DNA of 64,000 nucleotides, from contig CAUJCU010000015.1 of assembly GCA_963169745.1 (NCBI GenBank), positions 146,005-210,004 on the forward strand, given 5' to 3'. The notes under the pieces are model-generated. The model did not search any database. It had not been told where the DNA came from and saw nothing but the letters and a program-made list of their open reading frames with translations. A program made the translations under genes and the position numbers. This document shows, one piece after another, positions 1 through 34,187 of this stretch. The stretch's first letter is position 1. Each line of letters starts with the position of its first letter. Source of the DNA: Bacteroidota bacterium (GTDB lineage Bacteria; Bacteroidota; Bacteroidia; UBA4408).

Positions 1-1
1 A

Positions 2-580
2 GTATGGTTAGGAAAATACAGTCATGGCATTGATATTCGAGACTTTGGCAGTGGAAATGCTGGAGCTACTAATACTTTTCGAATTTTTGGAAAAAAAATG
101 GGCATAATAGTGTTGATTGTAGATATATTGAAAGGGTGGATTGCTGTAAAGCTATTTTACGTATTGTATGAGAGCGGGCAAAATATGGATGAATTATTTA
201 ATTTAAAAATTCGCTTAGGAATAGCCGCTCTATTAGGCCATGTTTTTCCCATATATGTTGGCTTTAAAGGCGGCAAAGGGGTGGCTACTCTTTTAGGCAT
301 TATTCTGGCCCTAAATCATCAGGCTGCTTTGGTATCAATAGGTGTGTTTTTATTAGTATTGCTAACTACACATTATGTTTCTTTAAGTTCTATGATTGCC
401 GGTTTGTTTTTTCCGGTGGTGGTTATGGTTATATTTAAAACAACCCAACCAATTATGGTTGTTTTTTCATTAATGATTAGTGTTGCAGTAATTATAACAC
501 ATCAGAAAAATATAGAACGCTTATTAAAAAATAAAGAAAGCAGAGCGCAACTATTTAAAAAAAAGAAAAACGTTGACTAA
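2..580 (+). CDS. plsY: glycerol-3-phosphate acyltransferase PlsY (5' end cut by window edge)
   Basis: Frame-2 translation from the first base reads ...DFGSGNAGATNTFRIFGKKMGIIVLIVDILKGWIAVKL..., i.e. the GSGNxGATN and DxLKG signatures of PlsY. The rest is a polytopic membrane protein of the expected size. The listed ORF (98..580) is just the first in-frame Met. Confidence 0.8.
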   Translation, partial: VWLGKYSHGIDIRDFGSGNAGATNTFRIFGKKMGIIVLIVDILKGWIAVKLFYVLYESGQNMDELFNLKIRLGIAALLGHVFPIYVGFKGGKGVATLLGIILALNHQAALVSIGVFLLVLLTTHYVSLSSMIAGLFFPVVVMVIFKTTQPIMVVFSLMISVAVIITHQKNIERLLKNKESRAQLFKKKKNVD

Positions 581-634
581 AGAAATGGGTTTCGTAAATG
601 AAAATAAAGCAAAATATTAGCTAATACATAATTA

Positions 635-3600
635 ATGAAAAGAAAAACGCTGTGCTTAATATTTTCTACCGTGTTAGCTGTGTTTATTGTTAACTTTACT
701 CAAGCCCAGACTGATTTTGGTTCTGAAAAAGAACTTCGAAAACAAGCCGAAAACTATTTTAAAGATGATAAACACTCAGAAGCCTTACCTCTTTTTTCAC
801 AGTTATTGAGCTTATATCCCAAAGACCCCAATTATAATTATAAGTATGGGGTTTGCCTCTTATTTGCTAAAGCCGATAAAGAGAAGCCCTTGGCATACTT
901 AACTTTCGCTTTGGGGAAAGAAGGGGTTGATGATGATATTTATTATTATTTGGGAAAGGCGTACCACTTAAATTATCGATTTGATGATGCCATAGTACAA
1001 TATCAGCTATTCAAGCAAAAGAAAAGCAGAAGTTCAACTAAATTAGAAGTTGATTTGCAGATAAAACAGTGTGAAAATGGAAAGCTGTTACTTAAAAATA
1101 TTACTGATTTAACAGTAATTGACCGTAAAGAAATGAATAGTTCTGAATATTTCAGAGCTTATGATCTTACACAAATTGGGGCAAAACTAGTTGTAAAACC
1201 AGATGAACTTAAGACACCTTTTGACATCAAGAAAAAAGAACAATCTAATGTAGTTATTCGTCAAACCAGTCAGGAAATTTACTTTAGTAGTTATGGAAAT
1301 GACGGCAAGAATGGTCGTGATATATACAAGGTAACCAAGCTACCAAATTTCACATGGGGAAAGCCTGAAAATATTGGAGCAATAGTTAATACCCCGTATG
1401 ACGAGGATTTTCCTTATATCACACCAGATGGAAAGACCTTGTATTTTTGTAGCAAAGGGCATAATAGTATGGGGGGCTACGATGTGTTTCGTTCAGAATT
1501 ACAGCCATCAGGAGCATGGGGGAAGCCCCAAAATCTTGATTTTGCCATTAATACCCCCGATGATGACATTCAGTTTGTAACTGAGGCAGAGAGTGATTTT
1601 GCCTATTTCTCATCTAAAAGAAATAGTCCGGAAGGGAAAATTACCGTTTTCAAAATCAGAACGGTACGCGTTCCGGTAACGATTGCTGCCATAAGTGGTA
1701 AGTTTTATAATGATGACGATCCGAAAAGCAAAAAAGCAAAAATTTCAATTCGTAACATTCAAACAGGAAAATTTTTGGGAGTTTTTGCCAGTTCTGAAAA
1801 AGATGGTGCCTATAGGTTAAATTTAAACAATGGTACAAAGTACGAATATACGGTTGAGCAACCAGGATTACCGCCTCTTACACAAACAGTAGAAATACCG
1901 CCTTTAAAAGAGTTAAGACCTCTAAAACAAGAAATTCATTTGAAAAAGAATGATGGTTCTGCAAGTATGGTAATCTATAACTTTTTTAGCGATACTTTAG
2001 AAAATAACGCACTAGCTACGGCTGAATTGTTTAAAGAGAAAGCCAACTTGGAAGTAAATTATGAAGAGCAAATTCAAGCCGGAATAATTACAGAGGCTAT
2101 GACCAAGTCGCCTCCTGTGGTTGATAACAAAGTACTATCAAATAGAAATGCATATCAGGAAAGTACAGACTCAAGCAATGAGGTAAAAGATACAAGCAAC
2201 TCACTTGCTAATAACCATATAACTAATCAAGTAACTACCGATAAGAAAACCTCTATAACCAAGGAGCCCAACTCTGAAAACAAAAATAACAAGACATCAA
2301 AAACAGGAATAAATAACAATGAATTGTTAGCTATTGCCTTTGAAGATACTAAAGACACTCAAAAAGAAGCAGACGATTTAAGAGATAAAAGCAGACAAGC
2401 ATATTCCTTTGCTCATATAAAAAACAATGCGGCACTAAAAAAGCAAAAAGAAGCTGAAGATAAAGAAGAGTTAGCCGAAAACCGGACTAACCCAAAGGAA
2501 AGACAACAACAACTTGAGGAGGCCGATAATTTGAAAAAGGAGGCCGAACCTCTTCGCCAGCAAGCTGTTGTTGCTTACAATTTAGCAAAAAGTTTAGAGA
2601 GTGAAGCCGATAGTAAGCAAATAGAAGCCCGCCAGGCCGAACAGTATGCGCAAGACTTAGAAAAAGCCATTCAATCTAACTCAGCTGAGGCTATATTAAA
2701 CCTGGAGAAACAAAATAAGGAGCTTGAAAAAAATGACACAACTAAGAAAAATAGCGAATATGATAACTTAATGGCTTTGGCTGATCAAAAAAATAATGAA
2801 ACGCAACAAAAAGAACAGGAAAAAGAAAAAGTAAAATTGCAAATTGAAGAGTCGCTTCTTGAAGAAAAGAAAACAAGAGAGTTAGTCTTAAAAACAAATG
2901 ATGAAAAGGCGAAAGAACAGTACGATAGTCGTATTAGTGCTATTTTAGTAGAAAGAAAAGATAAAGAGACCACTTTGACTGCTATCGAAAATGAAATAAC
3001 CCGATTAAAAAGAGAAACCGAAAATATTACCGAAGAAGCACAAATTAATAAGCAAATATTAGCCGAAATTTCGAGTGGTAACAGTACAACATACACTCAA
3101 CTTGGGCAAGCAGAATTAAAAGCATTAGACAACCACTTGGGGGCAGAACAACAGCATAAACAAACCGGATCCCAGGTAACCCAAGTGTCACAAAAAAACA
3201 CGCCTAATAATTCAACTCCTAAAGAACCAATCACGGCTCCTTCGCTATCTAAATTAGAACAACCTGAAAACTACGAGATATATAAAAACTCTAAAGATGA
3301 AAACCAAAGAGAAAAACTTCTTGCCGAAGCGTTAATGTTCAACAACCGAGCTGACTCCATTTCCGATTTGCTGAAAACAACTTCAGAGGTGTCTGAAAAT
3401 GAGGCATTAACTATAAAGCAAAAACAATTTGAAAATATTGCAGCAAGCAAACAAGTAGCAGCCGGAATAATTTCTTACAATATATTACAGAAAGAATACG
3501 ATGCTAATAGAGATGCTTTATTGCGTAAACAAAAAGAATTACAAGAGTCAGATTTGGCCAACTTTAACAATAGCTTAAGCCAAATTGAAAATGATTATCA

Positions 3601-6600
3601 AAAAGCTGTTGATAGTAAAGAGGCAGCTCTTGCTATAACAAATACTAAAGAGCAACAAGAAGCCTTGAATGTTACTTTAAACACTCAAAATGTCGCTTTA
3701 GTGCGTCAAAGGCAATTACTGGAGCAAGCCAATAGCAGCATTATCCTAAATAAAGGTGAAACCAAAATAGCTCAAGACTTTAAAGGTTTTGAGAAAGATA
3801 GAAATATTAATGCAACTGAGGCGGTAAATAGCCTTAGACCCGATTATTTGAATTATAACTCAACGGTAAAGTTAAGCCCAGAAGAGGCTAACGAACTAAG
3901 AAAGAGTAAAGAATTTATAGAGTTTAGTACACTGATTAAACAAGCTAAAACGTATGAGGAAAATGCAGACAAAAAAGCTATTTCCTATAACACCATAAAA
4001 GAAGAAGGACAAAATAAAATTATTGAGTCTCAACAATTAATAGACTTGGCAGCAGAGGAGAAGAAGAAGGCCAAAAAACAAGCTATGGTAGAGGAAGCAG
4101 TAAGAATAGATAATGAAGGGCAAAATCAACTTGCAATGGCCGATACGGTTAAAATTCAGGCACAAAAAGAAATGCTGAAAGCTGTTGCAGTTAAGGAAGA
4201 AGCTGACAAATACATTGCTGCAATTGAAAAGGAGAGAGCAAATAAAATACTAGCATTATTTAATAATCAAATTGAAGAAAAGCAAGTAACAGAAACAAGA
4301 ACATCTTCTGTTGAAAGCAAGGAAAAAGAACCTCTTACTGTAGATATTACGAAAACATCACAACAAACAAGTTCTACAAATACAAATTCTACGCAACAAA
4401 CTATAGTAACTGCTCCAAAATCTCAGGAAACAACTCCTCCGGAAACAGCAAATCAACTTAAGAATAACAATAATAATAGTACACCTTCTGATATCCAGTC
4501 GGTTCAAATAAAAACTAAAGACCAAATATTGACTGAAATTAAGTCAGATAATGACTATAAAGCATATGCCCAAATAAAAGATGAATCTGAGACCCTTAAA
4601 AAGGCTTCACAGCGTAAAAAATTAGAGGCAGATTCTGCTAGAATACAGGCCGAAAGGGAAGCTATTAACAGCAACGACTTATTTGAATTTGCTGCTGCAC
4701 AACCAAAGAAAAAAGATAGAAAAGAGGCACAGTTAAAAGCAGAGCAATTAGACAAACAAGCTAAAGAAACGGCCTTTAGAGCAGACTCGCTTCAAAATGC
4801 AGCTACTGTTATGGAAAATCAGGCTCAGAGCAAGCAAAACGAAGCAGATGATTTTCTAAGAAAGTTTGATGAAATGAAGTCAAAGAAACTGCTTATGGCA
4901 TATAACAATACAGTCCCCGAAGAATTACTTAAAACGGAGACACCAATCATAGCTACAAAAGACATCAATCAAAATAAAGAAACTTTAATATCTCCAGATT
5001 TTCAAAAAAGCACCCAACAAAAGCAAGATACACTGTCAGTACCTACTAAACCGAAGCAGCCAAGTGTGAAAACTACTCCCGAGTACAACACTTATTTAAG
5101 CTTAAAACAAGAAACTGAAAAGGCCGATGAAACTGCTAAAAAATGGAAACAAACTGTAGATTCATTAAAAACACTAAGTGACGAAAAAGAAGATGCTTCA
5201 AATGCAAAATTAGAAGAAGTAGCAGGTCTTAATAAGAAAAAAAGAAAGCCTCTGGTAAAAGAAGCGGCTGATTTGGATTATCAATCTCAGGTTTTAAACA
5301 GACAAGCAGATTCTTTAAATACATTTGTTAACGAAGCAAACAAAATTGCCAAAGAGAAAAAAGCAGCAGAATCATCCTATATAAATGGCTTGGATAAGCA
5401 GTTGTCATTAAGAATAATGCGAGCTATAGAAGGTATTCCAGAACCTGAGGAGCGTATAGACACCAGCCGTATTCTGGCTCATACCCCACAAAATATTAGC
5501 ACATCATCTAAAGAGTCTTTTGTGGCACCAACAAAAACAAGTACTTCTAATGTATCTTTTACAACAAGAGGCATAACAGGGGCTCAGCCACATACTGCAC
5601 GAAACCCTATAAAAATGAATCCCCAAATGCCTGATGGTCTTGTATTTAAAGTTCAAATAGGTGCTTTCAATCGTCCGGTAGCTGATAACGCTTTTGGTAC
5701 CATAAGTCCGGTAACGGGCGAAACCATAGCCGGAAGTAACTTAATACGTTATACGGCTGGGTTATTTAATAATTTTAATGACGCTGCTGAAGCCCGTAAA
5801 GAGCTGAACCAATTAAATTATAAAGATGCCTTTGTTGTAGCCTACTGTTATGGAGTCAGAATCAGCGTTTCCGAAGCCCGAACCCTTGGAGCTGCTGGAA
5901 AAGATTGTAAAACCAATACACTACTAACACCAGATCAAAAAAGTGAATTGGCAGCACAGTTTAATACTTCTACATCTTCAAATTTGAATTCTGATCTATC
6001 TAAGGAGAGTCTAATTAGAGCATCACAGGCTAACATAAACCCTCCTTCGCAAATAAAAATAGGAGAACTATTACCTCAACAAGATTTAGAAACTATAAAA
6101 GGGTTACTTTATACCGTTCAAGTGGGCGTTTATAGCAAACCCGTAAAAGCCGGACAGCTATATAATATTACACCATTGTATTTTGAATTAAATCAAAAAG
6201 GACAATACCGATACACCAGTGGAATTTTTAATGAATTAAAAGAAGCTTTAAAAGCCAAAGATGTTATTGTGCAAATAGGTGTATCTGATGCCTTTGTTTC
6301 GGCTTATGTAAACGGAAAACGAATACCTATGGAAGAGGCAGCGGCTATGGAACTCCAGAAGGGGAAAACAGTTTTTGCTCAAGTTCCGGGTGTCAATGTG
6401 CAACCAAAAATAATTCCTATGGACAATACTGCTATTACATCGGAAATTACCATGCAAACGTCTCAAACAAAAGAGACCGAGATACTTAATAAAGCAGCAA
6501 ATATTGTTTATAAGGTGCAGTTGGGAGCTTTTAGAAAAGAAGTTTCTGTTGAGATTATGAACAAATTTTTAAGTATTGCCGATAAAGGAATAGCCAACTA

Positions 6601-6772
6601 TAAGAATGGAGATTTAACGATTTATACACTCGGTAATTTTAGTAGCATTACAGATGCTGAAAAATTAAGGGCTGAGGTTATTGCCTTAGGAATTACTGAC
6701 GCCTTTATTGTTGCCTTTAACAAAGGACAAAAAATAACAATTGAGGAAGCTAAGAGTATGGGTGGAAACTAA
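635..6772 (+). CDS. giant secreted envelope protein: signal peptide, TPR-like region, TolB/PD40-like beta-propeller, CarboxypepD_reg-like domain, ~1100-aa K/E/Q-rich coiled-coil spacer, 3 C-terminal SPOR domains
   Basis: Single 2045-aa ORF with an N-terminal signal peptide (MKRKTLCLIFSTVLAVFIVNFTQAQ). There are TPR-like YYYLGKAYHLNYRFDDAIVQYQLF motifs. PD40/TolB blades follow (IYFSSYGNDGKNGRDIYKV; PDGKTLYFCSKGHNSMGGYDVFRS; INTPDDDIQF). Then comes a very long low-complexity helical region. Three SPOR-type repeats follow (FKVQIGAFNRP..., YTVQVGVYSKP..., YKVQLGAFRKE...). The N-terminal ~430 aa are clearly paralogous to CDS 20454..22529. Confidence 0.85.
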   Translation: MKRKTLCLIFSTVLAVFIVNFTQAQTDFGSEKELRKQAENYFKDDKHSEALPLFSQLLSLYPKDPNYNYKYGVCLLFAKADKEKPLAYLTFALGKEGVDDDIYYYLGKAYHLNYRFDDAIVQYQLFKQKKSRSSTKLEVDLQIKQCENGKLLLKNITDLTVIDRKEMNSSEYFRAYDLTQIGAKLVVKPDELKTPFDIKKKEQSNVVIRQTSQEIYFSSYGNDGKNGRDIYKVTKLPNFTWGKPENIGAIVNTPYDEDFPYITPDGKTLYFCSKGHNSMGGYDVFRSELQPSGAWGKPQNLDFAINTPDDDIQFVTEAESDFAYFSSKRNSPEGKITVFKIRTVRVPVTIAAISGKFYNDDDPKSKKAKISIRNIQTGKFLGVFASSEKDGAYRLNLNNGTKYEYTVEQPGLPPLTQTVEIPPLKELRPLKQEIHLKKNDGSASMVIYNFFSDTLENNALATAELFKEKANLEVNYEEQIQAGIITEAMTKSPPVVDNKVLSNRNAYQESTDSSNEVKDTSNSLANNHITNQVTTDKKTSITKEPNSENKNNKTSKTGINNNELLAIAFEDTKDTQKEADDLRDKSRQAYSFAHIKNNAALKKQKEAEDKEELAENRTNPKERQQQLEEADNLKKEAEPLRQQAVVAYNLAKSLESEADSKQIEARQAEQYAQDLEKAIQSNSAEAILNLEKQNKELEKNDTTKKNSEYDNLMALADQKNNETQQKEQEKEKVKLQIEESLLEEKKTRELVLKTNDEKAKEQYDSRISAILVERKDKETTLTAIENEITRLKRETENITEEAQINKQILAEISSGNSTTYTQLGQAELKALDNHLGAEQQHKQTGSQVTQVSQKNTPNNSTPKEPITAPSLSKLEQPENYEIYKNSKDENQREKLLAEALMFNNRADSISDLLKTTSEVSENEALTIKQKQFENIAASKQVAAGIISYNILQKEYDANRDALLRKQKELQESDLANFNNSLSQIENDYQKAVDSKEAALAITNTKEQQEALNVTLNTQNVALVRQRQLLEQANSSIILNKGETKIAQDFKGFEKDRNINATEAVNSLRPDYLNYNSTVKLSPEEANELRKSKEFIEFSTLIKQAKTYEENADKKAISYNTIKEEGQNKIIESQQLIDLAAEEKKKAKKQAMVEEAVRIDNEGQNQLAMADTVKIQAQKEMLKAVAVKEEADKYIAAIEKERANKILALFNNQIEEKQVTETRTSSVESKEKEPLTVDITKTSQQTSSTNTNSTQQTIVTAPKSQETTPPETANQLKNNNNNSTPSDIQSVQIKTKDQILTEIKSDNDYKAYAQIKDESETLKKASQRKKLEADSARIQAEREAINSNDLFEFAAAQPKKKDRKEAQLKAEQLDKQAKETAFRADSLQNAATVMENQAQSKQNEADDFLRKFDEMKSKKLLMAYNNTVPEELLKTETPIIATKDINQNKETLISPDFQKSTQQKQDTLSVPTKPKQPSVKTTPEYNTYLSLKQETEKADETAKKWKQTVDSLKTLSDEKEDASNAKLEEVAGLNKKKRKPLVKEAADLDYQSQVLNRQADSLNTFVNEANKIAKEKKAAESSYINGLDKQLSLRIMRAIEGIPEPEERIDTSRILAHTPQNISTSSKESFVAPTKTSTSNVSFTTRGITGAQPHTARNPIKMNPQMPDGLVFKVQIGAFNRPVADNAFGTISPVTGETIAGSNLIRYTAGLFNNFNDAAEARKELNQLNYKDAFVVAYCYGVRISVSEARTLGAAGKDCKTNTLLTPDQKSELAAQFNTSTSSNLNSDLSKESLIRASQANINPPSQIKIGELLPQQDLETIKGLLYTVQVGVYSKPVKAGQLYNITPLYFELNQKGQYRYTSGIFNELKEALKAKDVIVQIGVSDAFVSAYVNGKRIPMEEAAAMELQKGKTVFAQVPGVNVQPKIIPMDNTAITSEITMQTSQTKETEILNKAANIVYKVQLGAFRKEVSVEIMNKFLSIADKGIANYKNGDLTIYTLGNFSSITDAEKLRAEVIALGITDAFIVAFNKGQKITIEEAKSMGGN
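5641..6760 (+). repeat. three tandem SPOR (sporulation-related repeat, septal peptidoglycan-binding) domain units inside the 635..6772 CDS
   Basis: Protein-level triplication of a ~80-aa unit beginning VQIGAF / VQVGVY / VQLGAF with the downstream YR/YT, GxF and DAF motifs typical of SPOR domains. DNA starts near 5641, 6110 and 6508. Confidence 0.6.
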
Positions 6773-6819
6773 CACTATCTTTGCAACAAAAAACATTAAA
6801 CCGGTAGCTGAAAATAAAT

Positions 6820-7674
6820 ATGACTTACGCAGAGTTGAAATTACTTTGGCGCAACAAGTTGAGCGCTGTTTATGATGAAGATGAATGTGACAATCTATTT
6901 TATTTAACGTGCTATTTTTTAAAAGAATGGGGACGCTCAAGAGTGCTTTTTGAAAAAGACACTGTTTTGAATCAAGACGACAAAAAGCACTTTAATGAAA
7001 TATTAAAATCTCTGGTTACCAATAAGCCTATACAATACATTTTTGGTGAAACAGAGTTTTACGGCCTTAAATTTAAGATAGATGACGATGTGCTTATTCC
7101 AAGACCAGAAACAGAAGAGTTGGTTGATTGGGTTGTAAAAGATTATATGGGAAAACGTAATATTAAGTTTTTAGATATAGGTACAGGTAGTGGCTGTATT
7201 GCGGTTTCTTTAGCCAAAAATATGATTCACCCAGAGGCATACGCAATGGATATTATGCCACAGGCCCTAACCGTGGCCGAGATAAATGCCAGAGAACTAA
7301 ATGTAAACTTAAACTTACTTAAAGCTGATATTTTTGAACTGGCCGATGTCGTTGTTGACGAACAATTTGATTTAATTATAAGCAATCCGCCCTATATCTT
7401 AGAGTCAGAGTCTGCTACTATGCATCCTAATGTGTTGTTTTTTGAACCCCATTCTGCTTTGTTTGTAACCAATAACGACCCTTTACAGTTTTATAAATCT
7501 ATTGCAGATTTTGCACTACTAAATTTAAAGAACGGAGGATGGTTGTATTTTGAAACACATGAAATTTACAATGAAAAAGTAAAACAATTATTAGAAAGCA
7601 AAGGCTTTTTTAAGGTAGAAATAAAAAAAGATTTACAAAATAAACCCAGGTTTATTAAAGCTTTATTACAGTAA
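6820..7674 (+). CDS. prmC: peptide chain release factor N(5)-glutamine methyltransferase (PrmC/HemK)
   Basis: Class I SAM-MTase motifs (LDIGTGSGCIAVSLA) and the N5-glutamine MTase NPPY motif (ISNPPYI); 284 aa. Confidence 0.85.
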   Translation: MTYAELKLLWRNKLSAVYDEDECDNLFYLTCYFLKEWGRSRVLFEKDTVLNQDDKKHFNEILKSLVTNKPIQYIFGETEFYGLKFKIDDDVLIPRPETEELVDWVVKDYMGKRNIKFLDIGTGSGCIAVSLAKNMIHPEAYAMDIMPQALTVAEINARELNVNLNLLKADIFELADVVVDEQFDLIISNPPYILESESATMHPNVLFFEPHSALFVTNNDPLQFYKSIADFALLNLKNGGWLYFETHEIYNEKVKQLLESKGFFKVEIKKDLQNKPRFIKALLQ

Positions 7675-7693: not shown

Positions 7694-9703
7694 TTGAAGA
7701 AAAATCGGATAATATTTGCTTTATTATTAGTCACTATTGGTGTTATATTTTTTAGTGTTGAATGCCAATCTCCTAAAAAACAAAATGGCAGCGAAAATTT
7801 GGAAACACCTCATTATCTAAATCATGCTGATTCTGCCCGTTATGTAGGTATCAACGCTTGTAAAACATGCCATTATGAAATTTACACATCGTTTATTGAA
7901 ACCGGCATGGGGCAGTCGTTTGATATTGCTAGTAAAAAGAAGAGTGCTGCTTTATTTGGACCAAGTAATGTAATTTACGATTCTTATTCAGATTTTTATT
8001 ACCATCCTTATTTTTCTGGAGATACTATGAAAATATTGGAATTCCGTATCAATGGTAAAGATACTGTTTACAAGCGTACCGAAACGGTAAACTATATTAT
8101 TGGTTCGGGGCAACATACCAATTCACACATGATGATTCGAGATGGTTTTGTTACCCAAATGCCAATGACCTTTTATACCCAAAAAAAACAATGGGATTTA
8201 CCCCCCGGTTTTGAAAATGGATACAATTCACGGTTTAGCCGGAAAATTGGCTTAGAATGCATGAGCTGCCATAATTCATACCCTGATTTTGTTTTAGGAT
8301 CTGAAAACAAGTTTAATGCTATACCTCATGGAATAGGGTGTGAACGATGCCATGGACCAGGCTCTATTCATGTTGATTTAAAAACAAAAAACCAAATAGT
8401 AGATACCGCTAAAAACATTGATTACAGCATTGTGAATCCGGCTAAATTAGCACCTAATTTACAATTTGATATATGCCAAAGATGCCATCTCCAGGGAAAC
8501 ACTATTTTAAAAGATAATTATTCTTTTTACGATTTTAAACCGGGAAAAAAACTATCTGATTTTATGACTGTTTTTTTGCCTAAATTCAGCCATGCTGATG
8601 ATGAATTTATTATGGCTTCACATGCTGATAGACTCAAGCAAAGCCAATGCTTTATACAAAGTCAGAAATATGTTGACTCCTCTTCCTTAAAACCATATAA
8701 AAATACGATGACATGCGTAACTTGTCATAACCCACATAAAAGTGTAAAGTTTCAGAAAGATGAATTTTTTAATGCAAAATGCAACTCATGTCATGCCGAA
8801 AAACAAGTAGCCACTTGTTCCGAAACTAAATCGAAAATTGATTTGCAAAAGAATAATTGTGTAAGTTGCCACATGCCCAACTCCGGATCTATTGATATTC
8901 CCCATGTTACTGTTCATGATCATTATATTAGAAAACCCAAGCCTGCTACTGAACTTAAAAAGGCTAAAGAGTTCCTAGGATTGATTGCCATTAACGAGTT
9001 AAACCCTAACCATAAAACCAAAGCCCAAGCCTATATTAACCAATACGAAAAATTCGATAAAGTAGCCTATTATCTTGATTCGGCAGAAGTTTATACAAAT
9101 ATTTTACGAAAACAATCATTGACACTCTTCTTGGATGTAATTGTCCATTTGAATTTTCTAAAAGGAAACTACTCACAAATTATTGCTGATGTTGAGAAGA
9201 TTGGTCAGGTAAAACTTATTAACGACATCCTTGTCCATCCTTCTTATAACAATAAGGATGCCTGGTTGTGTTATAGAATTGGAGAAGCCTATCAAACCCA
9301 AATGGAATACACTAAAGCCATGGTTTATTATGCTCAGGCTAACAAGCTTGCACCATACTATCCAGATTTTTTAAACAAGTATGCCGGTGCCTGTCTTAAC
9401 AACAACCAATTGCCACAAGCTCAATCATTATATATAAAACTGACACAAAATTTTCCTGAATTTGCACCGGGTTTTTCAAATTTAGGTTTTATCTATTTAA
9501 CCCAAAATGATAAAGTCAATGCACATAAATACATTACCAAGGCTTTACAATTGGATCCCGATTATGAGTTGGCTCTGATGAACAAAGTAAGTCTTTTATT
9601 GTACGAAAATAACATCAAAGAAGCTCAAAAAATATTAAAGAAAATTATTAAACGAAACCCCAAACAAGAAAAAGCAAAAGAGCTTTTACTGCAGCTTCAT
9701 TAA
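7694..9703 (+). CDS. multihaem c-type cytochrome (7 CXXCH motifs) fused to C-terminal TPR repeats; N-terminal signal/anchor
   Basis: Seven haem-binding motifs read directly from the translation: CKTCH, CMSCH, CERCH, CQRCH, CVTCH, CNSCH, CVSCH. An N-terminal hydrophobic segment is present (IIFALLLVTIGVIFF). The C-terminal ~200 aa are TPR-like (AYQTQMEYTKAMVYYAQANKL..., LGFIYLTQNDKVNAHKYITKALQLDP...). Confidence 0.8.
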   Translation: MKKNRIIFALLLVTIGVIFFSVECQSPKKQNGSENLETPHYLNHADSARYVGINACKTCHYEIYTSFIETGMGQSFDIASKKKSAALFGPSNVIYDSYSDFYYHPYFSGDTMKILEFRINGKDTVYKRTETVNYIIGSGQHTNSHMMIRDGFVTQMPMTFYTQKKQWDLPPGFENGYNSRFSRKIGLECMSCHNSYPDFVLGSENKFNAIPHGIGCERCHGPGSIHVDLKTKNQIVDTAKNIDYSIVNPAKLAPNLQFDICQRCHLQGNTILKDNYSFYDFKPGKKLSDFMTVFLPKFSHADDEFIMASHADRLKQSQCFIQSQKYVDSSSLKPYKNTMTCVTCHNPHKSVKFQKDEFFNAKCNSCHAEKQVATCSETKSKIDLQKNNCVSCHMPNSGSIDIPHVTVHDHYIRKPKPATELKKAKEFLGLIAINELNPNHKTKAQAYINQYEKFDKVAYYLDSAEVYTNILRKQSLTLFLDVIVHLNFLKGNYSQIIADVEKIGQVKLINDILVHPSYNNKDAWLCYRIGEAYQTQMEYTKAMVYYAQANKLAPYYPDFLNKYAGACLNNNQLPQAQSLYIKLTQNFPEFAPGFSNLGFIYLTQNDKVNAHKYITKALQLDPDYELALMNKVSLLLYENNIKEAQKILKKIIKRNPKQEKAKELLLQLH

Positions 9704-9713
9704 AAATTAATTT

Positions 9714-10802
9714 ATGACTCGTAAAAGAAAATCAAGTAAAGAAACTTCGAAAAAGAAAAGCTCAGGTTTTTTCAGAAAAGTACTCATATCTTTATTCTTT
9801 ATTCTTATAATAATTGGAGGCGGAACCGTATATTTTACATACACTGCAGTTTATAAGCCCAATATTAAATTACAGGGAAAAGAAAATACATTTTTATACA
9901 TTAATACAGGGAGTACTTTTAATGAAGTTTTAAAAACCTTGGTTGACAGTCAAATTATAAATAATCAAAGTTCATTTAAATGGGTGGCCGAGCATAAGGG
10001 ATATATAAATAAAGTAAAGCCCGGAAGATATAAAATAAAGAAAGGAATGAGCAACAACGAACTCGTTAATCTGTTACGCAGTGGAGTTCAAGAGCCGGTT
10101 AAACTTATTTTTAATGAAGCTCGAACTAAAAATGATTTTACCGAAATTATTTCAAAACAAATTGAGGCAGAAAAAATAAGTATTGAAAAATTACTTGAAG
10201 ATAATGACTTTTTAAATCAATATCAGGTAAACAACAAAAATGTTTTGACTTTATTTATCCCCAATACCTATGATTTTTTTTGGAACACCAATGCCCAACA
10301 ATTTATAGAGCGAATGGCAGAAGAAAACAATAAATTTTGGACTAAAGAAAGATTAAAGAAAGCTGCCCGATTAAATTTATCAAAAACAGAGGTAAGTATA
10401 TTGGCAAGTATTGTACAGCAAGAGAGCAAGGTGGTTGATGAACAACCTGTAGTTGCCGGAGTTTATCTGAATAGACTTAAAAAAAAGATGTTGCTACAAG
10501 CTGATCCAACTGTGATTTTTGCAGTTGGTGATTTTTCAATCAGAAGAGTACTGAATACACATTTGAATTATGATTCTCCATACAATACCTATAAATATTT
10601 GGGCTTACCACCCGGCCCAATATGTATGCCTTACTCAAACACTATTGATGCGGTATTGAACAGTAAACCCCACAACTATCTTTATTTTTGTGCAAAAGCA
10701 GATTTTAGTGGACGACACAGTTTTGCCAGCACATTGGCACAACACAATAGAAATGCCGAAGCATTTAGAAAGGCCTTAAACAATAAAAAAATTTTTAAAT
10801 AA
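9714..10802 (+). CDS. mltG: endolytic murein transglycosylase MltG (YceG family)
   Basis: N-terminal basic tail plus a single TM anchor. YceG-like domain (…PGRYKIKKGMSNNELVNLL…, …LQADPTVIFA…, YNTYKYLGLPPGPICMP); 362 aa. Confidence 0.85.
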   Translation: MTRKRKSSKETSKKKSSGFFRKVLISLFFILIIIGGGTVYFTYTAVYKPNIKLQGKENTFLYINTGSTFNEVLKTLVDSQIINNQSSFKWVAEHKGYINKVKPGRYKIKKGMSNNELVNLLRSGVQEPVKLIFNEARTKNDFTEIISKQIEAEKISIEKLLEDNDFLNQYQVNNKNVLTLFIPNTYDFFWNTNAQQFIERMAEENNKFWTKERLKKAARLNLSKTEVSILASIVQQESKVVDEQPVVAGVYLNRLKKKMLLQADPTVIFAVGDFSIRRVLNTHLNYDSPYNTYKYLGLPPGPICMPYSNTIDAVLNSKPHNYLYFCAKADFSGRHSFASTLAQHNRNAEAFRKALNNKKIFK

Positions 10803-10845: not shown

Positions 10846-11115
10846 TTGTTATCAAAAAAAATGTTTCCGGTATATCTAAAATATAAAGGCCACTTAACCT
10901 ATTTTAAAATTGAATCTTACCATCAATTTTTGGAGCTAAAAATCTTAGGGCAGTACTTTTGCCTTACCCTGAATACCGCAAAAATATTACCCGACCGTGT
11001 TTTTATTGCCGACCTTCTCGAAGATCAGGGTAAACATGTAGAACGAATTACCCAGTCCGAGTTTGAGGAAATTTTGAAGACCTGTTATCAGACTCGAACA
11101 GAAACTTCTTTTTAA
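10846..11115 (+). CDS. hypothetical small protein (89 aa), function unknown
   Basis: Only an ORF in the 400-bp gap between mltG and cphA, on the same strand. No recognisable motifs. Confidence 0.3.
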   Translation: MLSKKMFPVYLKYKGHLTYFKIESYHQFLELKILGQYFCLTLNTAKILPDRVFIADLLEDQGKHVERITQSEFEEILKTCYQTRTETSF

Positions 11116-11207: not shown

Positions 11208-13859
11208 ATGAACATTATTGATATAAAGGCCATGCGTGGCCCCAATTACTGGAGTATCAGACGACATAAGCTAATTGTTATGAAAATTGATTTGGAAGAA
11301 ATGGAAGAATTTCCTTCCAATAAAATCGATGGCTTTGCCGACCGGTTAGAAAAAATGTTCCCAAGTATGTATGAACACGAATGCAGTGAAAATAAGCCGG
11401 GAGGCTTTTTTTCTCGTGTACGGGAGGGCACCTGGATGGGGCATGTGATTGAACATATAGCTCTTGAAATTCAAACCTTAGCAGGAATGGATACCGGCTT
11501 TGGCCGAACCCGAACAACAGGCGAACATGGGGTGTATAATGTCGTTTTTAGCTATCAGGAAGAAAAAGTAGGAATATATGCTGCAAAGGCTGCTGTGCGT
11601 ATTTGTGAGGCCCTTGCAAAAGACACACCTTATGATTTAGGAGAGGATATTCAAAAAATGCGAGAAATACGTGAAGATGAAAGACTGGGGCCAAGTACAG
11701 GTTCAATTGTAGAGGAAGCTCAGGCACGTGGTATTCCATGGATACGTTTAAACCGTTATAGCCTGGTGCAGTTGGGATATGGCGTTAACCAAAAAAGAAT
11801 ACAAGCTACTGTAACGAGCAACACCAGTAATATTGCAGTTGAAATTGCTTGCGACAAAGAAGAAACTAAAAATTTGCTTGAAGCAGCTTCAATCCCAGTC
11901 CCACGTGGCACCATAATCTATGATGAAGAGGACATGGAACGTGCCGTAAGAAGAATAGGTTACCCTTTAGTGTTTAAACCGGTTAATGGAAATCATGGAA
12001 GAGGTGCTACCATAAATATTCAAAATTGGGATGCGGCTGTTGAAGCTTTGACTCTAGCAAAAAAAGTAAGCCGAGGCGTGATTTGTGAAAAGTTTATCAC
12101 CGGTTTTGACTTTCGTCTTTTAGTAATTAATTATCAGTTAATAGCTGCTGCCAAAAGAACTCCAGCTTGTGTAACAGGAAATGGCAAATCAACTATAAAG
12201 CAGCTTGTTGAGGAGGTAAATAATGACCCCCGCAGAGGTTATGGACACGAAAAAGTACTTACGGCTATTAAGCTAGATGAAATGACATTAAATATTTTGA
12301 AGGATAAAAATCTCAGTATTGATGATGTATTGCCTGATGGTGAAGTGCTTTACTTAAAAAAAACAGCAAACTTAAGTACTGGAGGAACCAGCACAGATGT
12401 TACTGATTTGGTGCACCCTGATAACGTTTTTATGGCCGAAAGAATTGCTCGCATTATTGGTCTTGATATTTGTGGTATTGATATTATGGCCTCCGATTTG
12501 AGTACTCCAATTAGTCAAAATGGTGGAGCTGTTCTGGAAGTGAATGCCGCCCCGGGTTTTAGAATGCATATTGCTCCTGCCGAGGGCTTGCCACGAAATG
12601 TAGCCGAACCAGTCATTGATATGCTATATCCGCCCGGCAGCTCAGCTCGTATTCCAATAATTGCCGTAACAGGAACCAATGGAAAAACAACTACAACCCG
12701 ACTTATGGCTCACATTGTGAAAACAATGGGGCATAAGGTTGGATTTACCACAACAGATGGTATTTATGTGCAAAATCGTATGTTGGAACAAGGAGATTGT
12801 ACGGGGCCGGTTAGTGCCGAGTTTATTTTAAAAGATCCAACGGTTGATTATGCCGTATTGGAATGTGCCCGTGGAGGAATTTTAAGAGCCGGCTTAGGCT
12901 TTCATAAATGCGACATAGCTATTGTAACAAACGTAGCAGCCGACCACTTAGGATTAAAAGATATTAATACTTTAGAAGACATGGCTCGTGTAAAGGGCGT
13001 TGTGCCTGAAAGTGTTATGCCCGAAGGTTATGCCATATTAAATGCAGACGATGATTTGGTGTATAATATGCGTAAAGGCTTAGAGTGTAATGTGGCCTTA
13101 TTCAGCTTAAACGAAAATAATCCACGTATAGTTGAACACTGTAATAAAGGCGGATTAGCAGCTATTGTTGAAAACGGCTATGTTACAATATGCAAAGGCA
13201 CCTGGCGCATTCGTGTGGATAAAGTTGTAAATATTCCACTCACGTTTAGCGGTAAAGCAATCTTTATGATTCAGAATGTTTTACCTGCCATACTTGCCGG
13301 GTTTATTAGAAATTTTAAGACAGAAGATATCAGATTGGCTTTGGGCACTTTTATTCCTTCGCCAACGCAAACTCCAGGACGTATGAACTTATTTCACTTT
13401 AAAAACTTTCAAGTTATGGTGGATTACGCCCATAATACAGCCGGATTCCAGGCCATTGGTAAGTTTTTAGAAAAAATTGAGGCGAAACCTAAAATTGGGA
13501 TTATTGCCGGTGTAGGCGATAGAAGAGATGAAGATATTTACAATTTGGGGAAACAAGCAGCCCAGATGTTTGATAAAATAATCATCAGACAAGATAAAAA
13601 TTTAAGAGGCCGAACAGAGCAGGAGATTATAGATTTAATGAAGAAAGGAATTAATGAAGTAGATGCATTACGATTAGAAAAAATAATTCCAACAGAAAAA
13701 GAAGCCATTGAGTATGCTATTAAAAATGCCCAAAAGGGTTCTTTTATTACAATTTGCAGCGATGTTGTACCTGACGCCTTAGATCAAATTATGAAATACA
13801 AAGAACGAGAAGATAAGTTTGAAATAACTGTTGAAGATATTCAGGACTTACATAAATAA
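11208..13859 (+). CDS. cphA: cyanophycin synthetase CphA1 (N domain + ATP-grasp + Mur-ligase-like domain)
   Basis: N-terminus MNIIDIKAMRGPNYWSIRRHKLIVMKIDLEE matches the conserved CphA N-domain start. An ATP-grasp region (GYPLVFKPVNGNHGRGATINI) follows. A Mur-ligase P-loop (IIAVTGTNGKTTTTRLMAHI) follows and the C-terminal region is Mur-ligase-like. The 883-aa length is typical of CphA1, not the shorter CphA2. Confidence 0.9.
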   Translation: MNIIDIKAMRGPNYWSIRRHKLIVMKIDLEEMEEFPSNKIDGFADRLEKMFPSMYEHECSENKPGGFFSRVREGTWMGHVIEHIALEIQTLAGMDTGFGRTRTTGEHGVYNVVFSYQEEKVGIYAAKAAVRICEALAKDTPYDLGEDIQKMREIREDERLGPSTGSIVEEAQARGIPWIRLNRYSLVQLGYGVNQKRIQATVTSNTSNIAVEIACDKEETKNLLEAASIPVPRGTIIYDEEDMERAVRRIGYPLVFKPVNGNHGRGATINIQNWDAAVEALTLAKKVSRGVICEKFITGFDFRLLVINYQLIAAAKRTPACVTGNGKSTIKQLVEEVNNDPRRGYGHEKVLTAIKLDEMTLNILKDKNLSIDDVLPDGEVLYLKKTANLSTGGTSTDVTDLVHPDNVFMAERIARIIGLDICGIDIMASDLSTPISQNGGAVLEVNAAPGFRMHIAPAEGLPRNVAEPVIDMLYPPGSSARIPIIAVTGTNGKTTTTRLMAHIVKTMGHKVGFTTTDGIYVQNRMLEQGDCTGPVSAEFILKDPTVDYAVLECARGGILRAGLGFHKCDIAIVTNVAADHLGLKDINTLEDMARVKGVVPESVMPEGYAILNADDDLVYNMRKGLECNVALFSLNENNPRIVEHCNKGGLAAIVENGYVTICKGTWRIRVDKVVNIPLTFSGKAIFMIQNVLPAILAGFIRNFKTEDIRLALGTFIPSPTQTPGRMNLFHFKNFQVMVDYAHNTAGFQAIGKFLEKIEAKPKIGIIAGVGDRRDEDIYNLGKQAAQMFDKIIIRQDKNLRGRTEQEIIDLMKKGINEVDALRLEKIIPTEKEAIEYAIKNAQKGSFITICSDVVPDALDQIMKYKEREDKFEITVEDIQDLHK

Positions 13860-22552: not shown

Positions 22553-23632
22553 TTACTTACAGTCTTCAGTATATTTGCCGGCTAATTCGATACCCAGATT
22601 TTTAGCTTTTTCCCAATCTGTACAAGCCCCTTTAGGGTCGCGAAGCATTTCTTTTGCAATACCTCTGTTTAAATAAGCTACGGCATAATCGCTGTTTAAT
22701 TGTATAGCTTTTGTTGCATCATCTACCGAACCGTTGTAATCTTTTATCTTAAATTTAGCAGCCGATCGGTTGTTATATGCATAAGTGTAATCTCCTTTTA
22801 TTTTAATGGCATTTGAAAAGTCGTCAATAGCTCCTTTGTAATCACCTAAATCAAACCGGGCGCTGCCCCTGTTATTCAAAGCAATGTAACTGTCAGGTTT
22901 GGAGGCAATGGCTTTACTGTAACTTTCAATGGCACCTTTTAAATCGCCACTTTTTCGTTGGGCTGAGCCTAAGTTGTTATAAGTAAAAGTCATATCAGGG
23001 TTAAACTGTAATGCTTTTAAATAGTCACTAATAGCACCGTTATAATCTTCCATTTGCCTTTTGGTGCTACCTCGGTCATTGTAGGCATAAGCAAAATCGG
23101 GTTTTAAAACAATGGCTTGTGAAAAATCATCTATTGCCTCTTTGTATTTCTTTAAATTAAGGTAAACACTGCCTCTATGGTAATAAGCTTGGCTCTTGTT
23201 TTCGTTTCGCTCAATAGATTTTGTATAATAGGATATTGCTTTTTCATTTTCTTTTAATAATTCAAAAGTTTGTGCCATGTTGTACATAACATCCTGCAAG
23301 GAGTCGGTTAAAGATAGGCACTTCTCAAAATCTTGAATAGCTGCTCCATATTGTTTATTCTCTTTTTTAGCTACCCCCCGGTTAAAGTATGATTTTCCCC
23401 AATCGGGTTTTATGGCCAATGATTGAGTAAAAAAATCAATAGCCGCTTTATAATCACCAATTTTCATTTTTTCAATGCCCTCGTTATAGGCTTTTTCGGC
23501 CTCTTGAGAAGGAATTAAATTAATGATACTGTCTTTACTTTCAGATTGTGGAGTAGGGGAGTCGTTATTTTGTGCTTGCAATACTCCATATAAACAAGCA
23601 AGAAAAGCACAACAGCTTAGAATTTTTTTCAT
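22553..23632 (-). CDS. TPR-repeat lipoprotein/secreted protein
   Basis: At least 8 TPR-like repeats (AYYHRG…, AYNDRG…, TYNNLG…, ALNNRG…, AYNNRS…, AYLNRG…). Likely start at the internal MKKILSCCAFLAC signal/lipobox rather than the upstream MTIK. Directly upstream and co-directional with 20454..22529. Confidence 0.75.
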   Translation of the reverse strand: MKKILSCCAFLACLYGVLQAQNNDSPTPQSESKDSIINLIPSQEAEKAYNEGIEKMKIGDYKAAIDFFTQSLAIKPDWGKSYFNRGVAKKENKQYGAAIQDFEKCLSLTDSLQDVMYNMAQTFELLKENEKAISYYTKSIERNENKSQAYYHRGSVYLNLKKYKEAIDDFSQAIVLKPDFAYAYNDRGSTKRQMEDYNGAISDYLKALQFNPDMTFTYNNLGSAQRKSGDLKGAIESYSKAIASKPDSYIALNNRGSARFDLGDYKGAIDDFSNAIKIKGDYTYAYNNRSAAKFKIKDYNGSVDDATKAIQLNSDYAVAYLNRGIAKEMLRDPKGACTDWEKAKNLGIELAGKYTEDCK

Positions 23633-23865
23633 AAAAATGATAATTACTTTAATTGTCAAATTTAATTTCTTCTGTTAAATAATGAAAAAAAAATTAATAA
23701 TTGTTCATATTGTAGCAAGCTGCTTTATAAAGTGGGTAAAAAAGCTTTAAAATCCTACCCAACTTTAAAGCCCACTACTGTGTGAAGTATAAACTATAAT
23801 TACAGGTACACTTTTTGATTCTTTTAAAGTTAAATAGGATATTTGATAAGTATAAATCAATTTAA

Positions 23866-24742: not shown

Positions 24743-26105
24743 TCAATTAGTTATAATCCCCAATTCTTCATTAGTCAGTCCAAATTTAGTAATTTGTTTT
24801 TGTATTCTTTTTACTATTCCCAACTTTCTTTTCTGGTCTAAAAATAAATAACCTTCCGGGTTGATGTATTGCACATTTTTTACAACCATGTTCCATATAA
24901 TTACTCCAAATTTTCGGGCAGTAGCACTTATTGCAGAAACTCTACCTTTTCTAAAATTTATTCTTTGGAAAAAGTCTCTTAAAGGTGTTGAGTCTTTAAG
25001 ATTTCCTATGGCATTAGCAGCATTTCGAAATGCTATTTTCAGTCTGTTACTCCCTTTAGGCACTTTACTTGAAAGTACTTTGCCACCACTAACTTTGTTG
25101 TTTGGAGCAAGTCTGAGCCAGGAGCAAAAGTGTTTTGCAGTTGGAAACTTTTTTATTCCTTCTATACCTACTTCACTCATTATGGCAAGCACTGTAGCGT
25201 GACTCATGCCTTCTATTGCCAGCAAATCTGTACTTTCAAACATTTGATACGATTTTAGATTAAGATCTATGTCTTTGGGCGTATTTTTATTGATTCGCTT
25301 ATGCGGTTTTGAATCTATGTGGTGCTGTTTTTTATTTTCATCATTGTTAATGATTTCATCGAGCATTAATGCAATCATCTTGTCACATTCCATCATTTTA
25401 TTTTGGATGTGGTCATAAGTATCGAGTTCCTGCTGGAGTGTAAATAAATAATCTGTTCTTCCATTGCTTTGTAAAGCTTTGGCAATTTCCTCTTCACTCT
25501 TGCGACAGTTGGCATGTCGAAGTGCTGCAAGCTTTTGAGGATTTGCTTCTCCATCGCAGATAGCTCTGATAATGCGTAGTCCGGTAAGTCCACAAACATC
25601 ATTGACCACCACATCTAAGCGCAAATTTAAGAGTCTCAAATATTTCTGCATTTTTTTGCTTGTAGAAGCTGCATTGTGCAAGAGATTGGCTCTGTGTCGG
25701 CAAAAGGTTCTGAGTTGCTCTGTTTTTCCGTCTAGGAGGAAACTACTGCTCAAAAGTCCTAAGCTGTGCAACATTTGAATCCATTGGCAATCTTTAATAT
25801 CGGTCTTTTTGCCCTTGATGTTTTTGGTAAACTTTCCATTGCAAAGGATAACATGGAATCCCTTTGAGATTAAAACGGCATAAAGATTTTTGCCAGTAAG
25901 TACCGGTGCTTTCCATGGCTATGGTTCTAATCTTGTGCTCGTGAAGCCAATCGGCCATTTCATAAAGGTCTTGGTTAAATACGCCAAACGCTCTCACATC
26001 ATTTTCATGTTGCCCTACAGCTACCCAGTGGGAGCGACTACCAACATCAATTCCTGCGGCTAAAGGATTGACAATGTCCATTGGTATTTTTTCTTCTTCT
26101 ACCAT
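24743..26105 (-). pseudogene. IS110-family DEDD recombinase/transposase disrupted by a 1-nt frameshift in a homopolymer (two ORFs 25794..26105 and 24743..25774)
   Basis: The N-terminal ORF ends ...ESTGTYWQKSLCRF... The overlapping frame continues ...NLYAVLISKGFHVILCNGKFTKNIKGKKTDIKDCQWIQMLHSLGLL..., which is the conserved IS110 sequence. Removing one A from the A5 run (minus-strand caaaaatc; plus-strand T5 at 25887..25891) restores ESTGTYWQNLYAVLISKGF. Confidence 0.75.
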
Positions 26106-33417: not shown

Positions 33418-33428
33418 CAATATTCAAA

Positions 33429-34187
33429 ATGAGTAAAACAAATATCTTAATAGTTGAGGACGAAAGCATAGTTGCCAAAGATATTCAACACAGCCTGAAA
33501 AACCTTGGATATAATGTAGTTGGCATTGTGCCAACCGGTGAAGGTGCTGTTGCTACAGCCGTAGAAAAAACGCCAGACTTGGTGCTTATGGACATTATGT
33601 TGAAGGGCACAATGAGCGGCATAGATGCTGCCCAAGAGATAAAGGAAAAGCTTAATATCCCGGTTATATTTTTAACTGCTTATGCCGATCAAATTACTTT
33701 TAATAAAGCTAAAATTACCGAGCCTTATGGGTATCTTATTAAGCCATTTAAAGAAATTGATTTGCATACTTCAATCGAGATGGCTATTTATAAACATGAG
33801 AAAGTTAGTGATGTAGAGAAAGAAAGGGATTTTTTATATTCTCTTGTTGAAAATAAAGAATCGTCTGTAAAAGATAGTATATTTATTAGAGCCAATAGCA
33901 GATTAACAAAAGTAAAAAATAAGGATATTGTTTTTATTGAAGCCCTAAAGGATTACGTAACAGTAAATGCTATTAATACACGCTATACCATTCATAGCAC
34001 AATGAAAGATATATTAGTGAAACTTCCACCTACCGAGTTTATCAGAATTCATCGCTCTTTTATTGTACGTATTGACCGTATTGCAGCTATCGAATACCCA
34101 AATCTAATTTTAGATATAGATAAAAAGGTATTGCCTATAGGTGGCTCATACAGAAACGATTTGCTGAATAAAATTAACTTGATCTAA
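33429..34187 (+). CDS. two-component response regulator, receiver + LytTR DNA-binding domain
   Basis: Receiver motifs (ILIVEDE, DLVLMDIML, phospho-Asp in LMD, FLTA). C-terminal LytTR (FIRIHRSFIV…). 11 bp downstream of the kinase. Confidence 0.85.
   Translation: MSKTNILIVEDESIVAKDIQHSLKNLGYNVVGIVPTGEGAVATAVEKTPDLVLMDIMLKGTMSGIDAAQEIKEKLNIPVIFLTAYADQITFNKAKITEPYGYLIKPFKEIDLHTSIEMAIYKHEKVSDVEKERDFLYSLVENKESSVKDSIFIRANSRLTKVKNKDIVFIEALKDYVTVNAINTRYTIHSTMKDILVKLPPTEFIRIHRSFIVRIDRIAAIEYPNLILDIDKKVLPIGGSYRNDLLNKINLI

Follow-up and report, generated by a model that had tools for sequence, protein, structure and literature searches.

Seven c-type haem motifs joined to tetratricopeptide repeats: a predicted lipoprotein family of Bacteroidota and Rhodothermia with an OcwA-like haem domain

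Introduction

What is a protein with seven haem-binding motifs and a tetratricopeptide repeat (TPR) domain for, when its gene lies between prmC and mltG? The question is raised by the open reading frame (ORF) at positions 7694 to 9703 of a 64,000-nt stretch of Bacteroidota DNA, hereafter the window (assembly GCA_963169745.1, contig CAUJCU010000015.1, positions 146,005 to 210,004 of the forward strand). A first-pass annotation, made from the window's letters, had read the ORF as a seven-haem c-type cytochrome fused to a TPR domain in a housekeeping neighbourhood. Here we report that the protein belongs to a large family spread over two phyla, that its haem domain is predicted to share the fold of the nonahaem cytochrome OcwA, and that a periplasmic electron-transfer role is the most economical reading.

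Results

The seven CXXCH motifs of the 669-aa product are exactly those that had been listed before (Table 1), and a motif scan of the whole protein found neither CXXCK nor the CX3-4CH variants. Given the protein's own cysteine and histidine content, only 0.02 CXXCH would be expected by chance; no more than two appeared in any of 20,000 shuffles, and the six-frame translations of the 64 kb contain only two further intact CXXCH. The identical 669-aa protein is predicted on 13 public metagenome contigs, and the ORF is confirmed as a real gene. An exported protein with at least two CXXCH counts as a multihaem c-type cytochrome; this one has seven together with an N-terminal signal, and the earlier description of such a cytochrome fused to TPR repeats is borne out.

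A word-indexed search returned at least 6,485 related protein clusters (E ≤ 1e-5). The best 120 of these are covered over their full length at 52-69% identity, bar one truncated entry of 598 aa, and none has a more telling name than 'tetratricopeptide repeat protein'. Almost all other entries of the family likewise read as a TPR protein or bear the misnomers 'Tfp pilus assembly protein PilF' and 'pilus assembly protein TadD'; 'multiheme c-type cytochrome' occurs occasionally. Scanning one genome per species confirmed at least 586 relatives, the best 80 of which are nearly all labelled Bacteroidota, with Bacteroidia, Flavobacteriales, Sphingobacteriaceae, Chitinophagales/Flavipsychrobacter, Saprospiraceae and Cryomorphaceae among them. 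Searched exhaustively, the haem domain by itself gave 1,359 representatives (clustered at 50% identity) at E ≤ 1e-30, and among the best 150 nearly all full-length ones are 600-750 aa long and have seven equally spaced motifs, down to 33% identity. A distant branch at ~33% identity, with the same motif spacing and a TPR tail, belongs to Rhodothermia and includes the cultured Rhodocaloribacter litoris. No Pfam or NCBIfam model covers this heptahaem-TPR family, the best NCBIfam scores being far under their cut-offs, and our literature searches found no publication on it. Within this large, uncharacterised Bacteroidota and Rhodothermia family the window protein is nothing out of the ordinary, and the cytochrome-TPR fusion, which had been implied to be unusual, turns out to be a fixed arrangement shared by thousands of proteins from both phyla.

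Conservation is highest in the haem domain. All seven CXXCH are invariant in 119 of the 120 close homologues and likewise in the Rhodothermia relatives (30-36% identity). Both phyla thus keep 14 haem cysteines and seven proximal histidines, together with six candidate axial ligands (His226, His310, His348, His404, His410 and Met72), the kind of conserved distal His or Met found in multihaem c-type cytochromes. Met394 is invariant in both phyla as well; it lies within a CHMP motif that OcwA and OmhA have too, and its role is probably structural. Also invariant in both phyla is Cys319. The Rhodothermia members have 16 cysteines, namely 14 in haem motifs, the lipobox cysteine and the counterpart of Cys319, which must be unpaired there because it is the sole cysteine outside the haem motifs and the lipobox. 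Five positions are fixed in Bacteroidota only: His141, His145, Met307, Cys375 (99% conserved) and His408 are replaced in Rhodothermia by Ala, Tyr, Val, a variable residue and Thr, respectively. Such a coordinated switch may mean that, at one haem, the two phyla differ in ligands or in disulfide pairing.

A first AlphaFold run, using close homologues only, gave a predicted local distance difference test score (pLDDT) of 40-70 for the haem domain and was set aside for fold inference. When this domain (residues 38-436) was re-modelled alone with an alignment of both phyla, pLDDT rose to 83, with a predicted template modelling score of 0.82; the strands of the beta-sheet subdomain reached pLDDT 75-97 in both models. 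Foldseek comparison of the haem-domain model with the PDB returned a sole significant target, OcwA (6I5B), at E 1.2e-8 over ~430 (431) alignment columns. In fold comparison, the values for other relatives were 12.2 for OmhA, 7.7 for MccA, 5.3 for the octahaem nitrite reductase, 5.2 for c554 and 4.9 for NrfA. The full-length model retrieved only helical-repeat proteins, almost all of them TPR proteins. The PDB sequences were searched with hmmsearch and a profile of 41 sequences, single-sequence phmmer having given only weak cytochrome matches. The profile matched OcwA (6.7e-14), MtrA (6.9e-11), OmhA (1.2e-7) and NrfA (1.7e-6), and neither c554 (1BVB, 0.054) nor NrfB (0.2) was significant.

The haem chain and family relations of OcwA have been described (PMC6703420, PMC9250108), and OcwA, OmhA, MccA and c554 form one clade (PMC9250108). 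Both the fold with its haem-domain topology and the sequence-profile similarity match this clade. By its modelled structure the haem domain (residues ~45-430) is a member of the OcwA/OmhA/MccA/c554 branch of the NrfA/hydroxylamine oxidoreductase (HAO) multihaem superfamily.

Of the nine haems of OcwA, 1-4 can be laid over c554 and 5-9 over NrfA. Haems 2 and 5 are both five-coordinate, each beneath a His-His motif, which for haem 2 is HH281/282 over its open face; haem 9 is His/Met, and MccA has the extra beta-sheet domain in common with OcwA (PMC6703420). The seven motifs of the window protein align in order with motifs 1-7 of these nine, motifs 2-4 falling on CAGCH, CEQCHGPGAKH and CGQCH of OcwA. 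The likeness takes in haem 1, the beta-sheet domain, haems 2-4 of the c554-like module and further haems, as well as the shared motifs YVGxxxCxxCH and CExCHGPGxxH. The two proteins nevertheless have a sequence identity of only ~20%, and at the position of Met72 OcwA has the His of 'ETSHG'. SHADRLKQSxC (residues 309-319) aligns with OcwA TKHAKNSHH, which holds HH281/282 (chain numbering + 29 gives the published numbering used here); in this low-scoring alignment the residues facing the two histidines are R/K/Q. Alignments to OcwA in the pocket region are low-scoring in general and shift by 1-3 residues between methods. Neither of the His-His motifs on the distal side of haems 2 and 5 in OcwA is conserved in the window protein.

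The window protein is not OcwA proper, which has nine haems and, towards its C-terminus, a pentahaem module like that of NrfA together with a three-helix bundle. Here there are seven motifs, and a TPR superhelix of ~230 aa takes the place of the last haems and the three-helix bundle of OcwA and NrfA. OcwA is also the outer-cell-wall cytochrome of a Gram-positive metal reducer, Thermincola potens, whereas the window protein is a predicted lipoprotein of a Gram-negative member of the Bacteroidota. Among the other relatives, OmhA (the undecahaem S-layer cytochrome of Carboxydothermus ferrireducens, 6QVM) and MccA (the octahaem sulfite reductase of Wolinella, 4RKM) differ in haem number, and neither has a TPR domain; the S-layer context of OmhA is absent, and so are the CX15CH motif and the copper site of MccA. 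Cytochrome c554 of Nitrosomonas europaea (1BVB/1FT5) is a soluble carrier with four haems rather than seven, and the Pfam C554 match (PF13435) is partial, covering profile positions 49-84 of 84 (the last 36), so the protein is not a c554 either. Matches to Pfam C554 and to MtrC/MtrF_II-IV begin in the region of haem motifs 2-4. The first-pass suggestion of an NrfB/c554-like module can therefore be kept in part: a c554-type N-terminal module is supported by the partial Pfam match and by the best structural match, OcwA, and NrfB is not. MtrA (6R2Q chain A) shares CxxCHNPH(x)S repeats with the window protein, but is not among the top fold matches of the haem domain, and a gene for its porin partner is absent.

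Several further families were tried and rejected. The decahaem families MtrA/DmsE and GSU2203 have ten haems, not seven, and scored far below their cut-offs (DmsE, 46.2 vs 192.2; GSU2203, 70 vs 325). NrfA, NrfB and NrfH were excluded by the lack of CXXCK, by scores that do not reach the NrfA and NrfH family models (NrfH, 12 bits vs 134), by the NrfB E value given above and by the absence of nrf genes from the window. Identity with a known nitrite or hydroxylamine reductase subunit, which would have overturned the earlier reading, did not emerge from the family-model and profile searches, and the view that this is not a standard respiratory subunit is supported.

The N-terminus carries a lipoprotein-type signal peptide, which sharpens the 'signal/anchor' of the first-pass annotation: the signal is there, but it is not a plain anchor, as it ends in Cys24. 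This residue is kept in 99% of the 120 homologues, and 319 of 369 full-length family members have a lipobox-like L-[ASVFT]-[GAS]-C after a hydrophobic stretch, that is, the lipobox with invariant Cys in which the signals of bacterial lipoproteins end. In the window protein itself the residue preceding Cys24 is Glu, which is atypical for a lipobox. The segment between the lipid Cys and haem motif 1 has a median of 32 residues across the family. In Bacteroidota the signal that exports lipoproteins to the cell surface is acidic, and only 14% of the 369 full-length members have two or more Asp/Glu at positions +2 to +5 past the lipid Cys. Because so few are acidic there, the protein is most likely a lipoprotein kept on the periplasmic side, with the variable linker as a tether.

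Seen in the model, the TPR part is slightly larger than the ~200 aa first described: the repeats are present, and the helical repeat domain as a whole spans ~230 aa (residues ~440-669), with the tandem 34-residue helix-turn-helix superhelix typical of TPR proteins. Two named identities suggested by this domain were rejected. For PilF/PilW/TadD, the PilW score is 46.6 bits against a cut-off of 154, and no pilus genes occur in the window or the related loci; for CcmH/CycH/NrfG, PF23914 (TPR_CcmH_CycH) gives 27.6 bits against a threshold of 42, and an unrelated TPR protein of the window (22553-23656) scores higher, at 37.7 bits. The TPR lipoproteins NlpI, LpoA and PilF/PilW all lack a haem domain, and the similarity to them is that of generic TPR and stays under each curated cut-off (NlpI, 19 bits vs 250).

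For the gene neighbourhood, we clustered all ORFs within ±10 kb at 81 loci (the window's own and 80 related ones), 71 of which had enough downstream sequence for mltG to be counted. As had been stated, the neighbours in the window are prmC and mltG (Table 1), and a scan found no terminator between prmC, the cytochrome gene and mltG. A sigma-70 promoter scan was uninformative, since it gave fewer promoter-like sites than the shuffled expectation. Upstream prmC is found only in the window's own contigs and in one other locus (L005). The gene mltG, in contrast, lies directly downstream on the same strand at 37 of the 71 loci, with a gap of -14 to +26 bp at 27 of these 37. Around this pair the flanks vary, with 13 families in front of the cytochrome gene and at least 23 behind mltG, so the pair has been kept while its surroundings were shuffled. 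The paired loci come from metagenome-assembled genomes (MAGs) labelled Flavobacteriales, Sphingobacteriaceae, Chitinophagales and Cryomorphaceae; the 34 loci without the link fall mostly in the lower-identity half of the list and include Flavipsychrobacter and Taibaiella MAGs. At about half of the related loci mltG, which had been passed over as a housekeeping neighbour, is a conserved partner gene in tight coupling with the cytochrome gene. No other genomic link of the cytochrome gene recurs in Bacteroidota, and in the window's lineage the two genes are probably co-transcribed.

Respiratory, ccs/ccm and nrf genes are absent from the 64-kb window, and no partner oxidoreductase was seen there or within ±10 kb in the ~80 related loci, in agreement with the first-pass annotation. 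The recurrent neighbours across the 81 loci are a GNAT acetyltransferase (27 loci), dapF (20), HtrA (17), tyrS (14), a rhodanese (13), a PGM/GlmM-like protein (12), and a PASTA-domain protein, proteins with a type IX secretion system (T9SS) tail and an Fe/Mn superoxide dismutase (10 each). Several of them are peptidoglycan-related and none is a redox partner. The rhodanese, which is directly upstream in some loci, was rejected as a sulfur link for its lack of a signal peptide. In the Flavipsychrobacter/Chitinophagales loci (L053-L072) the cytochrome gene is followed at nine loci by a gene for a ~205-aa signal-peptide protein with no Pfam match, and in most cases has tyrS upstream; in some of them, e.g. 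L053, a superoxide dismutase of the Fe/Mn type, extended by ~58 aa at its N-terminus, is encoded within ~1.5 kb.

The mltG link is absent from all six Rhodothermia loci examined. At five of them (L085-L089, ~1-6900) the cytochrome-TPR gene follows a same-strand trio encoding a CarboxypepD_reg/TonB-receptor-like outer-membrane protein (~1130 aa), a T9SS-tailed protein of 1134-1295 aa with no Pfam domain, and a PorV/PorQ-family barrel (NF033709, 105-138 bits), and in the five genomes a thioredoxin-reductase-like gene converges on the cytochrome-TPR gene. Homologues of the first two trio proteins lie ~3.5 kb from the cytochrome gene in two Bacteroidota loci (L007 and L012); a search of the window for such a trio gave no matches. 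Because the five Rhodothermia genomes share wider synteny, we give the trio little weight.

Table 1. Features of the heptahaem cytochrome c-TPR gene, its product and its immediate neighbours (window positions)
Feature	Residues	Positions (nt)	Strand	Remarks
Heptahaem cytochrome c-TPR lipoprotein gene (lipidation predicted)	1-669	7694-9703	+	669 aa, TTG start, stop included; from ORF list
Lipoprotein-type signal peptide MKKNRIIFALLLVTIGVIFFSVEC	1-24	7694-7765	+	Cys24 is the predicted lipidated residue
Variable tether	25-37	7766-7804	+	pLDDT <50 over residues 22-43; unconserved
Haem motif 1 to invariant GMGxSF	from 56	7859-7921	+	CKTCH (56-60); Met72
CXXCH motif 1, CKTCH	56	7859	+
Beta-sheet subdomain	94-168	7973-8197	+	Between haems 1 and 2; GSGQHTNSH (His141, His145)
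Haem motifs 2-4	from 189	8258-8488	+	CMSCH (189), CERCHGPGSIH (216-226), CQRCH (261)
CXXCH motif 2, CMSCH	189	8258	+
CXXCH motif 3, CERCH	216	8339	+
CXXCH motif 4, CQRCH	261	8474	+
Invariant SHADRLKQSQC	309-319	8618-8650	+	His310, Arg313, Lys315, Cys319
Haem motifs 5-7 and IDIPHVTVHDH	from 341	8714-8926	+	CVTCHNPH (341-348), CNSCH (363), CVSCHMP (389-395); His404, His408, His410
CXXCH motif 5, CVTCH	341	8714	+
CXXCH motif 6, CNSCH	363	8780	+
CXXCH motif 7, CVSCH	389	8858	+
Helical repeat (TPR) domain	440-669	9011-9700	+	14 helices; canonical TPR motifs 519-668
prmC (release-factor glutamine methyltransferase)		6820-7674	+	19 bp upstream of cytochrome gene; Pfam PrmC_N + MTS
mltG (YceG-family endolytic transglycosylase)		9714-10802	+	10 bp downstream of cytochrome gene; Pfam YceG 283 bits

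Discussion

The most economical reading of these data, to which we give an even chance, is that the protein is a periplasmic electron-transfer chain docked to a partner by its TPR domain. What the data show are the motifs and their conservation, the predicted OcwA-like fold, the TPR domain, the size of the family and the gene context; lipidation, topology, the ligation of the haems, the route of the electrons and the docking partner are what we infer. The protein would be exported by Sec, anchored by its lipid so as to face the periplasm, and loaded with seven c-type haems, which after attachment would be spaced closely enough to form one electron-transfer chain. Most of the haems would be bis-His and one, via Met72, probably His/Met; haem 2 would have a distinct distal environment of Arg313, Lys315 and Cys319. 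Electrons would enter from periplasmic or membrane respiratory carriers and leave either to a protein docked on the TPR domain or, at haem 2, to a small molecule.

Several observations weigh against such a relay. The AlphaFold model of the haem domain contains no haem groups, and the TPR domain shows only generic TPR conservation. An electron donor or acceptor gene was not found nearby in any of ~87 loci (±10 kb in 81), and a purely respiratory role leaves the tight coupling to mltG unexplained. Moreover, the universal His/Met ligands are six for seven haems, so a pure wire of seven six-coordinate haems is not assured; the seventh ligand could be Cys319, a lineage-specific residue or nothing.

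This missing ligand leads to the main rival explanation, which we consider unlikely but worth taking seriously: the protein may be an enzyme rather than a relay, with a five-coordinate or Cys-ligated, reactive haem 2 (CMSCH) fed by the other six haems and with nitrite, hydroxylamine, NO, sulfite, thiosulfate, tetrathionate or peroxide as candidate substrates. Haem 2 aligns with haem 2 of OcwA and would be a reactive site as in OcwA, MccA and c554; the invariant H310-A-D-R313-L-K315-Q-S-x-C319 aligns with the stretch holding the distal HH281/282; and Cys319 is the only spare cysteine in Rhodothermia. Nevertheless, this alignment is among the low-scoring ones that shift between methods, the HH motif itself is not conserved, and there is neither a CXXCK nor an MccA-type copper-site cysteine pair. 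In Bacteroidota, the invariant His141 and His145 could complete six-coordination, and Cys319 may pair with the almost invariant Cys375. No pathway genes lie nearby.

The gene order raises another explanation, which we hold to be improbable. The protein may be a cell-envelope factor, a TPR lipoprotein adaptor resembling NlpI or LpoA that works with MltG or other peptidoglycan enzymes and whose haem chain reports or transmits the periplasmic redox state. TPR lipoproteins that organise peptidoglycan enzymes, among them NlpI and LpoA, are an established class. The close spacing of mltG amid varied flanks, the recurrence of dapF, PGM/GlmM-like, PASTA-domain and HtrA genes, and a 2045-aa SPOR-domain protein encoded two genes upstream in the window are all consistent with it. 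In its most specific form, the TPR domain would bind MltG or another peptidoglycan enzyme and couple the processing of glycan strands to the periplasmic redox or respiratory state, and sensing or reaction would take place in the conserved haem-2 pocket of Cys319, Arg313 and Lys315. This form, drawn only from the conserved, often overlapping cytochrome-mltG pair and the peptidoglycan-themed neighbourhood, is a long shot; if true, it would be the first link of a multihaem cytochrome to peptidoglycan remodelling. However, gene order is the whole of the evidence, other bacteria have mltG within mixed housekeeping operons, and the link is missing from 34 of the 71 loci and from the six Rhodothermia loci examined. 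We know of no redox-dependent step in peptidoglycan remodelling, and the likeness to NlpI is generic.

It is very improbable that the protein sits exposed on the cell surface as a terminal reductase in extracellular electron transfer. Its best fold matches, OcwA and OmhA, are indeed cell-surface cytochromes of Gram-positive metal reducers, Bacteroidota display many lipoproteins on the cell surface, and the same-strand trio precedes the gene at most Rhodothermia loci, with homologues of its first two members near the gene in two Bacteroidota loci. On the other hand, the acidic stretch past the lipid Cys is rare in the family, and neither a porin-cytochrome conduit nor other multihaem genes lie nearby. 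The trio may mirror only the relatedness of widely syntenic genomes and is absent from the window, and the hosts include lineages of aerobic heterotrophs, such as that of Rhodocaloribacter litoris. Finally, it is hardly credible that the protein serves pilus assembly or cytochrome c maturation as a TPR scaffold with incidental haem motifs, as the database names PilF and TadD and the weak PilW and TPR_CcmH_CycH matches might suggest, given that both scores are far under the curated cut-offs and the second is surpassed by an unrelated TPR protein, that the haem domain is conserved best, and that no pilus or ccm/ccs genes are nearby.

The known multihaem cytochromes of the OcwA/OmhA/MccA/c554 clade come from metal-reducing Firmicutes and from specialists of the nitrogen and sulfur cycles. 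A pruned, seven-haem version with a predicted lipid anchor and TPR repeats is a standard gene in several hundred Bacteroidota and Rhodothermia species at the least. The lineages that carry it are abundant in soil, freshwater and the sea, and some are aerobic heterotrophs, which is notable for an OcwA-like cytochrome. If the electron-transfer reading holds, finding the partner would supply a missing element of periplasmic electron transfer in both phyla. The result for the window itself is modest, being a typical family member in a housekeeping operon, and it does not overturn current understanding.

Other features of the window

Across the whole 64 kb there are no tRNA genes and no Rfam matches at gathering thresholds, and the only mobile-element signature seen is an IS110/IS116/IS902-family transposase gene (24743-25774, minus strand). 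The 2045-aa secreted protein encoded upstream of prmC (635-6772, plus strand) begins with a TPR-like/PD40 region, continues in a very long low-complexity middle rich in K/E/Q and ends in SPOR-type repeats (peptidoglycan-binding); its gene is on the same strand as the cytochrome gene, and the arrangement is the same in two related loci (L001 and L005). Downstream of mltG, an 89-aa ORF with no family match (10846-11115) precedes a gene for cyanophycin synthetase with Cyanophycin_syn and Mur ligase domains (11208-13859, plus strand). Further along, a sensor kinase of 1426 aa, with numerous PAS domains and a HisKA_2/HWE-type kinase core, is followed by a LytTR response regulator (29137-34187, plus strand). 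The second SPOR protein of the window combines two HU-CCDC81 domains with a C-terminal SPOR domain (36968-38035, minus strand).

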